Of a DNA stretch of 64,000 nt, positions 23,012-25,244 are shown piece by piece (the first letter of the stretch is position 1; every line of letters begins with the position of its first letter). The stretch is from an uncultured bacterium. Its GTDB lineage: Bacteria > Margulisbacteria > WOR-1 > O2-12-FULL-45-9. The position numbers were made by a program, and so were the translations under genes. Below the pieces are notes generated by a model, which was not told the origin of the DNA, searched no databases, and saw only the letters and a list, made by a program, of their open reading frames with translations. The DNA lies in assembly GCA_964568455.1 (NCBI GenBank), contig CAZMPJ010000009.1:306-64305 (forward strand), written 5' to 3'.

Positions 23012-24079
23012 ATGTTTAAGTTTGAAGTCCTCAAAAAATCAAAAAAGACCAAAGCTAGAGTAGGGCGTATAACAACTGATCGCGGCATAATTAATACTCC
23101 AGTCTTTATGCCGGTTGGCACTCAAGCCACAGTAAAAACCATGACTCCCCATAGTTTAAAAGAAATCGGTGCGGAAATTATCCTTTCTAATACTTATCAT
23201 CTCTTACTTCGTCCTGGCCCAGAATTAATCAAAGAAGCTGGTGGATTGCATAAGTTTATGAATTGGGATCGACCAGTTTTAACTGATTCTGGTGGTTTCC
23301 AAGTCTACTCTTTAGCTCATATGAGAAAAGTTACTGATAAAGGTGTTGAATTTACTTCGCACATTGACGGCAAAAAGCATTTTTTAACTCCAGAGAGTGT
23401 CCTGGATATCCAGGCTGCCTACGGCAGTGATATTTCTATGGTCTTAGACGAATGTGTTGAATTGCCGAGTGATAGGAAGATTGTTGAAAGGGCGGTTAAG
23501 AGGACGACAGAATGGGCTAAGAGATCCAAATTAAAAATTAAAAATGAAAAATTAAAAACTAATGTATTATTCGGAATTGTACAGGGGGGATGTTATAAAG
23601 ATTTGAGAAAACGATCGGCAGAGGAGATTGCGGAAATTGGATTTTCAGGTAATGCCATTGGTGGATTGTCGGTGGGGGAGAGCCAACAAGAAATGTTTGA
23701 TATGTTAGAAGTTGTAAATGAAGTTTTACCAGAAGATAAACCTCGGTATTTAATGGGGGTGGGGTTTCCAGATGATATAAGAGGGGCGGTGGAAAGAGGT
23801 TGTGACATGTTTGATTGTGTTCTACCTACTCGCTTGGCTCGTCATGGCACATTTTTAACTGATGAAGGCAAGATTAGTATTAGACAAAAGCGGTTTGAAA
23901 GAGATTTTACTCCGCTTGACCCAACTTGTGATTGTTATACTTGCAAAAATTTTTCCAAAGCCTATATCCGGCATATATTTTGGGCGCGGGAGATTTTGGC
24001 GATGCAGCTTTTAACCCACCACAACCTGCGTTATTACATGCGTGTGATGGCAAAGATCAGGAATGAAATACTTAGCTGA
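23012..24079 (+). CDS. tgt: Queuine tRNA-ribosyltransferase
   Basis: TIM-barrel TGT signature ('LTDSGGFQV', 'LDECV'), zinc site '[18 protein letters not shown]'; 355 aa. Confidence 0.9.
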
Positions 24080-25244
24080 TCTTCACATTCATAGCAAACA
24101 CAGTAGAGCCACCTCAAAAAGCATGGACCTCGATGGCATTGCTAAGTGGGCCAAGATTAAGGGTATTGATGTTGTAGCAACAGGTGATTTTACTTTTCCC
24201 GCTTGGTTTGAAGAGTTAAAGGCAAAATTAAAACCAGCTGAACCTGGTTTTTACGAATATAACGGGGTTCGCTTTGTAGTTAATGTTGAAATCAGCTCGA
24301 TTTATAAAAAAGGTGACAAGACCCGCAAGATCCACAATTTAGTTTTTGCTCCTTCACTTAAAATTGCCGGAAAAATTAGGGATGAGTTGGATAAAATTGG
24401 CAATATTAAATCAGACGGCCGGCCCATATTAAAATTAGATGCGGAAAGATTAGCTGAAATTGCTTTTAACATTTCTGAAGATGCTGTAATTATCCCAGCG
24501 CATGCTTGGACCCCTTGGTTTTCTATCTTTGGCTCCAAATCAGGCTTTGATTCTATTTCCGAAGCTTTTGGCCAATATGCTGATAAGATTTTTGCCCTTG
24601 AAACTGGATTATCGTCAGATCCAGCTATGAATTGGCGGCTGTCAAAATTAGATAAGATAGCTCTTATCTCCTGTTCAGACGCACATTCACCGCAAAAATT
24701 GGGTCGTGAAGTGTGTGTTTTTGATACAGAGATGAATTATAAAGCTATGTTTGAAGCGATTAAAACTAAAGATAAATCAAAGTTCCTTTATACAGTTGAG
24801 TTTTTCCCTGAAGAAGGCAAATACCATTATGATGGGCATAGAAAATGTAATGTTTCCTGGCATCCTAAGGAGACTAAGGCAAATAAAGAGATCTGTTCTG
24901 TTTGTGGCAAAAAAGTCACAGTAGGTGTTATGAGCAGAATAGATGATTTGGCTGATCGAGACGAAGGCGTTGTGCCGGAAAATGCCATTCCATTTAAAAG
25001 CATGATTCCTTTGCAAGAGATTATTGCTGAAGTAAGGAAAAAAGGAGTTAATACTAAAGGTGTTCAAACTGAATACTTTAAATTAATCGAATCATTTGGT
25101 ACAGAGTTTAAAATTTTACTAGATACACCGATTGCTGATCTTCCCAAAGATATTGGGGTAGCAATTGAAAAAGTTAGAACTGGTAAGGTTAAGATTGAGC
25201 CTGGGTATGATGGCGAGTTTGGCAGGCTTGACATAGGCGGATAA
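24063..25244 (+). CDS. PHP-domain endonuclease, EndoQ-like (PHP + C-terminal Zn-ribbon)
   Basis: N-terminal '[16 protein letters not shown]' PHP metal-binding motif, like archaeal/Bacillus endonuclease Q, plus a 'C..C...C..C' Zn-ribbon ('CNVSWHP...CSVCGKK'). The specific family assignment is from memory of EndoQ sequences. Confidence 0.55.

Follow-up and report, generated by a model that had tools for sequence, protein, structure and literature searches.

The 64-kb stretch of DNA analyzed here (hereafter, the window) encodes a member of the endonuclease Q (EndoQ) family, and the 3′ end of this endoQ gene recurs at the borders of neighboring defense genes. We consider it likely that endoQ is a normal chromosomal gene whose extreme 3′ end has been a recurrent, att-like insertion point for small defense cassettes. 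This reading draws on the identity of the enzyme, on direct repeats of the gene's tail, on relatives in which the site is empty or singly occupied, and on the lack of a recombinase in cis; from these we infer both an order of events and a recombination mechanism. Taken alone, the enzyme adds little: annotation pipelines already have a name for its family, to which it clearly belongs.

Tail repeats of endoQ and the cassettes between them

A 17-nucleotide (nt) core, ATGATGGGGAGTTTGGG, occurs at positions 25207 (with two mismatches), 26597, 30384, and 31767—four copies where 0.15 were expected, and none of 100 shuffled sequences gave four matches. On a larger scale, positions 24661–25222 are repeated at 29838–30399 with 86.5% nucleotide and 90% amino acid (aa) identity. 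The original prediction had the 3′ end of endoQ recur at cassette junctions further along the sequence, and the fourfold core and the long repeat bear this out. The array, up to the giant open reading frame (ORF) that converges on endoQ, comprises:

24063–25244, + strand: endoQ, endonuclease Q family protein of 393 aa, clamp-motif tail absent (match to the Pyrococcus furiosus enzyme [PfuEndoQ], ligands, fold model)
25207–25223, + strand: tail repeat A, a decayed left core copy inside the end of the intact endoQ (15 of 17 core positions; aligned with the left junction of locus L005)
25228–25255, + strand: AbiE cassette promoter, TTGACA-16-TATAAT, lying across the final codons of endoQ (..RLDIGG*; 12 of 12 consensus positions)
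25262–25288, + strand: inverted repeat AAAGGTGAC-N7-GTAACCTTT, candidate AbiEi operator (hairpin z-score −3.3)
25286–25891, + strand: abiEi, antitoxin/regulator (PADLOC AbiEi, E 3.9e-61)
25896–26600, + strand: abiEii, nucleotidyltransferase toxin (PF08843, E 1.4e-18; PADLOC AbiEii, E 2e-76)
26591–26635, + strand: tail repeat B, the last abiEii codons (TGAAAAATGA) fused to a non-coding endoQ tail (..DGEFGKVGII*; 98% identical to repeat D)
26628–29837, − strand: frameshifted, 5′-truncated paralog of a 959-aa ORF (50624–53503, − strand), made up of ORFs 26628–28844 (738 aa) and 28816–29649 (277 aa)
29838–30415, + strand: partial endoQ copy, codons 200–391, ending in tail repeat C (30384–30415, ..YDGEFGVVGI*); its frame is open
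30412–31689, − strand: AAA_14/DUF4143 ATPase, defense candidate PDC-S01 (PF13173, PF13635; PADLOC PDC-S01, E 7.8e-108)
31731–31759, − strand: promoter-like site for the ATPase gene, TG-extended TTGACG-17-TATCAT, abutting repeat D (comparison with the promoter consensus)
31761–31805, + strand: tail repeat D, a relic of the abiEii end (TGAAAAATGA) plus an endoQ tail, whose stop overlaps that of the giant ORF (junction alignment)
31798–48024, − strand: 5408-aa giant ORF, converging on endoQ (SecA_DEAD/DEAD matches only)

Repeats B and D are identical at 44 of 45 positions, and in the junction alignment TGAAAAATGATGGGG, the end of abiEii, is common to the right-hand copies. Spacing is near equal, the long repeats lying 5177 nt apart and B and D 5170 nt apart; the content common to the two 5.17-kb units is confined to the endoQ piece and the 45-nt tail. 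As read from the sequence, the anatomy is attL/attR-like, with a block of identity at the 5′ edge followed by a diverged yet still-coding tail. The insertion point falls past the last structured strand of the EndoQ model (residues 388–390), and the folded enzyme is therefore preserved. Nineteen contigs from several JGI/ENA samples, among them contigs 232, 61, 24, and 12 kb long that are 99.97–100% identical, share this arrangement, which is therefore not an assembly artifact. Three independent contigs (L179, L180, and L182) end at one position in the partial endoQ copy (window position ~30361), which could be due to an assembly break at the repeat or to a population that is structurally heterogeneous.

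No integrase, transposase, or other recombinase was detected in any ORF of at least 120 aa in the window. Integron gene cassettes were considered and ruled out: the repeats are unfolded (no attC-like hairpins, minimum free energies of 0 to −0.7 kcal/mol), an integrase is missing, and the cassettes are self-promoted. What we observed between A and B, between C and D, and in the related loci L005 and L159 is the organization of site-specific integrative elements or cis-mobilizable elements (CIMEs), in that repeats containing the 3′ end of a gene flank the inserts and the gene stays open. A recombinase beside the element was not found, and CIMEs lack one by definition. The proposal that the 3′ end of endoQ is an integration target has the support of anatomy and of comparison with relatives, though not of mechanism.

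Both cassettes encode defense genes and carry promoters of their own at their edges. That of the AbiE cassette matches the sigma-70 consensus perfectly, and abiEi and abiEii are adjacent, as in AbiE systems. Autoregulation of AbiEi through an inverted repeat is expected from the Streptococcus agalactiae system, and the inverted repeat downstream of the promoter is what we infer to be the AbiEi operator. The same promoter and inverted repeat lie beside abiEi in L005, L190, and L192. The 234-aa AbiEii is at least 70% identical and of equal length in Patescibacteria, Saganbacteria, Gastranaerophilales, Elusimicrobiota, Babeliales, and Margulisbacteria; over the same phyletic span, endoQ is conserved far less. 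The TTGACA/TATAAT promoter and the AAAGGTnAC...GTAACCTTT inverted repeat travel with abiEii, and many of the carrier contigs measure only 1–2.5 kb; single-sequence patterns found no AbiEii relatives on viral contigs. Homologs of the ATPase encoded at 30412–31689 (− strand) are ~60% identical across many phyla and often stand alone on ~1.5-kb contigs. A second AAA_14/DUF4143 ATPase gene, at 49204–50358 (− strand), also matches PDC-S01; its product is ~25% identical to that of the first, and no flanking repeats were found around it.

Related loci display the site in other states. In L003 and L004 (EndoQ 87% identical), endoQ ends in ..YDGEFGVVGI* and abuts the giant gene directly, with no cassette in between; the site is empty. 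L005 (EndoQ 75% identical) is singly occupied: it carries the AbiE cassette only, with the same promoter and operator, and has a 29-nt direct repeat of the tail on both sides. Its two repeat copies differ by two mismatches, each of them silent when read in frame with the tail (GGG AGG versus GGA CGG), and its right junction, GATGAAAAATGATGGGG, is the same as that of the window.

We screened 163 endoQ loci for a second tail copy in two ways, by nucleotide similarity and with the peptide motif PG[YFH]DGx[YFW]G. Only the window lineage, L005, and L159 showed one, and tail duplication was accordingly rejected as a general property of endoQ loci. L159 stems from an organism with a GC content of 0.60 and an EndoQ that is 49% identical to that of the window. 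The last 99 nt of its endoQ encode PGHDGVYGKINIF...EEQMSLF* and are present twice (2273–2371 and 4757–4855 of the locus; 87% identical, the first 23 nt perfectly so), with the frame and the QMSLF ending kept. This repeat begins at PGHDGVYG, the conserved β15–β16 hairpin motif. Between the copies lies 2.4 kb of DNA with a GC content of 0.42 and genes for DUF2283, an amidase, and a YARHG/TPR protein; beyond it lies more low-GC DNA (genes for a Cap4-nuclease-like protein, an AAA_15 ATPase, and a PD-(D/E)XK protein), and host genes resume at ~9.6 kb. L159 would represent a second, independent insertion at the same motif, and as such it supports the end of the gene as an integration target.

The enzyme and the genes around it

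The ORF listing of the window contains endoQ as an ATG-initiated ORF of 393 aa at 24063–25244 (+ strand). Searched with phmmer against all PDB chains, its product matched endonuclease Q exclusively: PfuEndoQ 5zb8_A at E 5e-62 (query residues 5–390 against chain residues 5–381) and 7k30/7k31, likewise PfuEndoQ, at E 2e-61. TIGR00375 was hit at E 1.2e-57 with 196 bits, which is under that model's cut-off of 326 bits, and the sole Pfam match, PHP_C, was sub-threshold. Several homologs are listed by NCBI as 'endonuclease Q family protein' and are assigned to the Pfam family PF27218. An AlphaFold2 model built from 43 homologs (pLDDT 93.2, pTM 0.92; final strand, residues 388–390) displayed the predicted three-domain EndoQ fold—a PHP barrel, a zinc domain, and, at the C-terminus, a helical domain bearing the β15–β16 hairpin. 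Foldseek returned 5zb8 as its best PDB match (E 3.7e-41, TM 0.89, rmsd 2.1 Å), and other PHP proteins reached a TM of 0.38 at most. Histidinol phosphatase, the PHP domains of PolX or PolIII, and RNase AM were ruled out, the next-best folds scoring TM 0.28–0.38 at E of at least 1e-7. Judged by its homologs and by the model, the product is a full-length PHP nuclease of the EndoQ family, known and already annotated; it is predicted to be a zinc-dependent enzyme of PHP fold that would nick DNA 5′ of deaminated or abasic nucleotides, the lesions of the EndoQ family being dU, dI, dX, and AP sites. Public gene calls in several assemblies begin at Met21 (24123 instead of 24063) and yield a protein of 373 aa. 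This start is mis-called, because it loses the metal ligands H8 and H10; every homolog backs the 393-aa start.

Two further features belong to this part of the window:

23012–24079, + strand: tgt, tRNA-guanine(34) transglycosylase (PF01702, E 4.5e-156; TIGR00430, 506 bits at a cut-off of 307)
24837–24905, + strand: zinc-ligand codons H259, C262, C278, and C281 (HxxC...CxxC; PfuEndoQ alignment)

Characterized members of the family come from P. furiosus (PDB 5ZB8, 7K30–33), Methanosarcina acetivorans, Bacillus pumilus, and B. subtilis. PfuEndoQ and the window protein are homologous over their full length, with ~35% identity and the same three domains; the host here differs in being a mesophilic, Margulisbacteria-like bacterium. 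In PfuEndoQ, two zinc ions are held by His8, His10, Glu76, His84, His139, and Asp193, with His195 nearby (PMC5961232). The alignment places H8, H10, E76, H91, H147, and D206 at the six ligand positions and H208 at that of His195, and these residues are invariant in 119–121 of 121 homologs. The lesion pocket and Trp wedge are conserved as well (T150, W152, E180, G182, and L183 for Pfu Thr142, Trp144, Glu167, Gly169, and Leu170). Two pocket positions differ: Pfu Leu168 is replaced by Thr in all 121 bacterial sequences examined, and Pfu Asn191 by Cys204 (codon 24672–24674), with Cys in 38 and Asn in 81 of the 121. At both positions, the contacts with the base are made by main-chain atoms, which are all that position 191 contributes (PMC5961232).

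The predicted metal site of the zinc domain consists of H259, C262, C278, and C281 (HCCC), which align with Pfu Cys249/252/268/271. Its first ligand is thus His rather than Cys, and this His is invariant in 121 of 121 bacterial sequences. The protein contains a lone CxxC, C278-S-V-C281, and the other half-site reads H259-R-K-C262; of the CxxC...CxxC zinc ribbon proposed earlier, the zinc site holds and the pattern has to be corrected to HxxC...CxxC. By comparison, the proposed PHP active site of EndoQ type at the N-terminus was confirmed by sequence, ligands, and fold together: every metal ligand is retained, EndoQ is the best match both of the sequence by phmmer and of the model by Foldseek, and profile searches assigned the protein to no other PHP subfamily.

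Upstream, tgt and endoQ overlap by exactly 17 nt according to the ORF coordinates, just as had been stated, and given this overlap co-transcription is plausible. The overlap is kept in relatives of at least 70% identity. The loci L166–L174 (EndoQ 70–72% identical; including GCA_004196255.1) read queA, a variable ORF, tgt, endoQ, and then, directly 3′ of endoQ, a HhH-GPD glycosylase gene of the EndoIII type with an Fe-S cluster motif. A general functional link of tgt and endoQ was rejected, since adjacency was seen only at 70% identity or above and in 0 of ~125 distant loci; this makes the pairing a lineage-specific synteny and not a sign of queuosine coupling. Because the tgt/glycosylase context is kept and the gene is present with or without cassettes, we regard EndoQ as a housekeeping repair enzyme. 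The suggestion that it might be part of the island's own biology did not hold up: the survey of relatives with and without cassettes found endoQ in both, and the order tgt–endoQ(–HhH-GPD glycosylase gene) is kept in those that are cassette-free. The slot between queA and tgt is itself variable in relatives, holding a 388-aa, 457-aa, or 87-aa ORF or several ORFs, of which only the N-terminal ~120 aa are conserved; in the window it is filled by a 625-aa ORF (21113–22990, + strand) with no family match.

On the other side of the AbiE cassette, the paralog at 26628–29837 is 33% identical to residues 96–385 of the 959-aa protein, the similarity reaching position 29781. Neither it nor the 959-aa ORF could be assigned to a family, the paralog having no Pfam or PADLOC match. 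The joint at ~29838 truncates both endoQ and this paralog. We also considered its 738-aa and 277-aa ORFs as a displaced C-terminus of the giant gene, in the style of polymorphic toxins, and discarded the idea, as they show no similarity to the giant proteins of the window, L003, or L005. The giant gene occupies the same position in L003, L005, and L169—a conserved neighbor that evolves fast—and the C-terminal ~1400 aa of its product are not conserved among relatives.

Elsewhere in the window, an AT-rich 37-nt direct repeat, TTAATGACGAATT.ATCAATGACGAATGACGAATTAA (11968–12004 and 14197–14233, 95% identical), flanks genes for a pseudouridine synthase and an aspartokinase. Two tRNA-Pro genes (14899–14972 and 20005–20082, with CGG and GGG anticodons) lie 5.1 kb apart, and neither is tied to the variable region.

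A proposed history and its competitors

The two copies of the endoQ 3′ portion differ by 47 synonymous and 15 non-synonymous codons. With synonymous changes so dominant, the copies diverged as functional genes in different genomes, and the two alleles would have been brought together only recently. The database contains no full-length donor allele of the partial copy; nothing in it comes closer than the gene of the window itself, at 90%.

In the history that we propose, endoQ would be translated from a tgt–endoQ transcript within a lineage-specific housekeeping and repair cluster, and the insertion target would be the endoQ DNA that begins with the conserved PGYDGxFG hairpin and ends with the stop codon. 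Each insertion would bring a replacement tail, such that endoQ stays open, and leave the old tail as a non-coding direct repeat beyond the cassette. The ancestral endoQ would have been convergent with the giant gene, as in L003, before an AbiEi/AbiEii cassette inserted, as in L005 and between A and B of the window. In a sister strain, the AbiE genes would then have been swapped for the PDC-S01 ATPase gene, with the last 10 nt of abiEii staying beside the old tail (C to D); such a replacement is indicated because repeat D holds these 10 nt without an adjacent abiE gene. Finally, a 5.18-kb segment may have recombined between the strains as a circular fragment, by one Campbell-type crossover within the 560 nt of endoQ homology, giving rise to the present array, in which a second, 5′-truncated endoQ is joined to the 5′-truncated paralog of the 959-aa ORF. 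The present locus would hence be a composite array shaped by inter-strain recombination. As to mechanism, the insertions could have relied on a recombinase that acted in trans or has since disappeared, as for CIMEs, or on RecA acting on the 17–30-nt and 560-nt homologies; genes for RecA and CinA are found within the window.

Several observations weigh against the end of endoQ being such a target. In L184, L190, and L192, the AbiE cassettes share promoter and operator with that of the window yet lack a significant flanking repeat, and for this reason the AbiE cassette is not demonstrably a site-specific element. That the cassette creates flanking repeats wherever it is located was dismissed on the strength of L184 and L192, which have none, and a 17-nt flanking match in L190 (z ~3.9) was set aside, the best shuffle having scored higher. 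Tail duplication occurs in just two independent lineages among the 163 screened loci, and neither the window nor the 12 kb of L159 encodes a recombinase. The empty site of L003 may be either ancestral or the product of a precise loss. Lastly, AbiEii of the window and of L005 are 82% identical, a value that is silent on vertical or horizontal inheritance because AbiEii is at least 70% identical across phyla. For the same reason, AbiEii divergence cannot date the insertion, and vertical inheritance of the cassette, as judged from a divergence equal to that of the flanking genes, was dropped as uninformative.

A sharper form of our reading, rather than a contradiction of it, casts the endoQ tail as the attB site of a dedicated tyrosine or serine integrase whose gene would lie in another part of the genome or on a visiting element. 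The cassettes would then be integrase-less remnants or trans-mobilized CIMEs, and the array an active accretion site. Such a site would account for the classical attL/attR appearance, with repeats whose 5′ edge is perfectly identical over 17 nt in the window, over 16 nt in L005, and over 23 nt in L159, ahead of a diverged tail that still codes, and likewise for empty and occupied sites at one nucleotide position in relatives, for one motif targeted in two distant lineages, and for the contigs that break within the partial copy. We nonetheless judge it unlikely, given that a recombinase is missing from both loci, that the AbiE cassette occurs elsewhere without flanking repeats, and that a 560-nt repeat far exceeds any att site and demands homologous recombination regardless. 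We are quite doubtful of the broader claim that DNA of the PGYDGxYG hairpin is the specific target, in distant bacteria, of an undescribed delivery of recombinase-less cassettes mobilized in trans or by RecA, which would install small defense units equipped with promoters of their own and a new tail for the gene, and of which the window lineage and L159 would be two instances.

A further rival has the enzyme work in the defense island, for instance by cutting phage DNA that contains uracil or hypoxanthine or by processing damage caused by neighboring systems, which would account for its place at the edge of the island. EndoQ does cut dU-containing DNA (PMC4357722, PMC5961232), and it adjoins AbiE, two PDC-S01 ATPases, and a giant helicase-like gene in the window and Cap4-nuclease-like and AAA_15 genes in L159. 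However, these neighbors vary by lineage, while endoQ keeps its place beside tgt and, in relatives, beside an EndoIII-like glycosylase gene, cassettes or not; the family occurs in ordinary contexts in many phyla, and EndoQ has no PADLOC match. A defense role therefore strikes us as very improbable. Hardly credible, and largely refuted already, is the idea that no insertion took place and that the repeated 3′ ends arose by local tandem duplication or by mis-assembly of two co-existing strains. The near-equal spacing (5177 nt for the long repeats, 5170 nt for B and D) and the contigs ending within the repeat would fit it, but the 5.17-kb units share so little, the order is identical in the 232-, 61-, 24-, and 12-kb contigs from different samples, the synonymous-dominated divergence points to a foreign allele, and L005 and L159 show the same type of junction independently.

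Distribution of EndoQ and comparison with known systems

EndoQ homologs have been described in 'a limited number of bacteria' (PMC5961232, PMC6202378), and the original prediction spoke of rare bacterial homologs. In contrast, our protein database search returned at least 8000 matches at E < 1e-10, and among the first 600 pattern matches listed in GTDB species representatives, 552 encode an EndoQ relative; homologs are abundant. Matches of 55–70% identity came from Margulisbacteria, Saganbacteria, Omnitrophota, Patescibacteria, and Zixibacteria, and the nearest named homologs (~70% identity) from Candidatus Margulisbacteria. Close relatives were found by exact-protein look-ups, as the matches listed by conserved-peptide scans of genome and metagenome collections were all relatives of 60% identity or less. 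The 'limited groups' of the biochemical literature thus fall far short of how widespread EndoQ is among uncultured bacteria, which here include Patescibacteria, Omnitrophota, Zixibacteria, and Margulisbacteria, among others.

The bacterial homologs differ at the very end that the insertions affect. Of the 120 closest, 73 carry a Qxx[LMF]F C-terminus (QKTLF, QVGLF, QLGLF, and the like) ~15–20 residues past the last strand. This QxxLF ending fits QL[SD]LF, the bacterial β-clamp-binding consensus, and suggests clamp-coupled repair in bacteria, in parallel to the archaeal PIP box. The EndoQ literature that we searched by the term 'clamp', which did not cover the original B. pumilus paper, makes no mention of the ending. 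Another 25 of the 120 end at most nine residues after GYDGxYG, among them the window protein and its three nearest relatives; the window EndoQ lacks the motif and stops six residues after GYDGEFG, so that it has probably lost clamp coupling. The segment lost is exactly the one replaced by the insertions. This sets it apart from EndoQ elsewhere: no clamp-interaction tail is present here, whereas most bacterial homologs have QxxLF and PfuEndoQ carries a PCNA PIP box at the corresponding C-terminal place (PMC5961232, PMC4858679). The PIP-box region is dispensable for Pfu catalysis, a 1–400 truncation being active (PMC5961232).

With type IV toxin-antitoxin/abortive-infection systems of the AbiE kind, the first cassette shares adjacent genes, strong HMM matches, and an inverted repeat at the promoter. 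It differs in being embedded in the tail of endoQ and in belonging to an AbiEii subfamily whose conservation, with at least 70% identity between phyla, is unusual.

The array as a whole resembles defense-island hotspots in that variable cargo (AbiE and PDC-S01 here, Cap4-nuclease-like and AAA_15 genes in L159) occupies a fixed position and differs among close relatives; what distinguishes it is a boundary resolved to the nucleotide, within the last 30–100 nt of the flanking gene. The end of endoQ would thereby constitute a nucleotide-resolved hotspot of defense-cassette exchange with no recombinase encoded nearby, and a compact natural case for the study of defense-island turnover.

Another parallel is offered by elements that integrate into the 3′ end of a protein-coding or tRNA gene and supply it with a new 3′ end, and by their integrase-less derivatives. 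Among the latter are the CIMEs of Streptococcus thermophilus, which lie beside ICESt1/ICESt3 at the 3′ end of fda. Direct repeats of the target's tail, an intact target gene, tandem stacking of units, and units without a recombinase of their own are common to both. In contrast to such elements, no integrase or conjugation module is seen in the 64 kb here, the units measure only ~1.35 kb, each with one promoter and one or two genes, and one of the repeats extends to 560 nt, which is best explained by homologous recombination.

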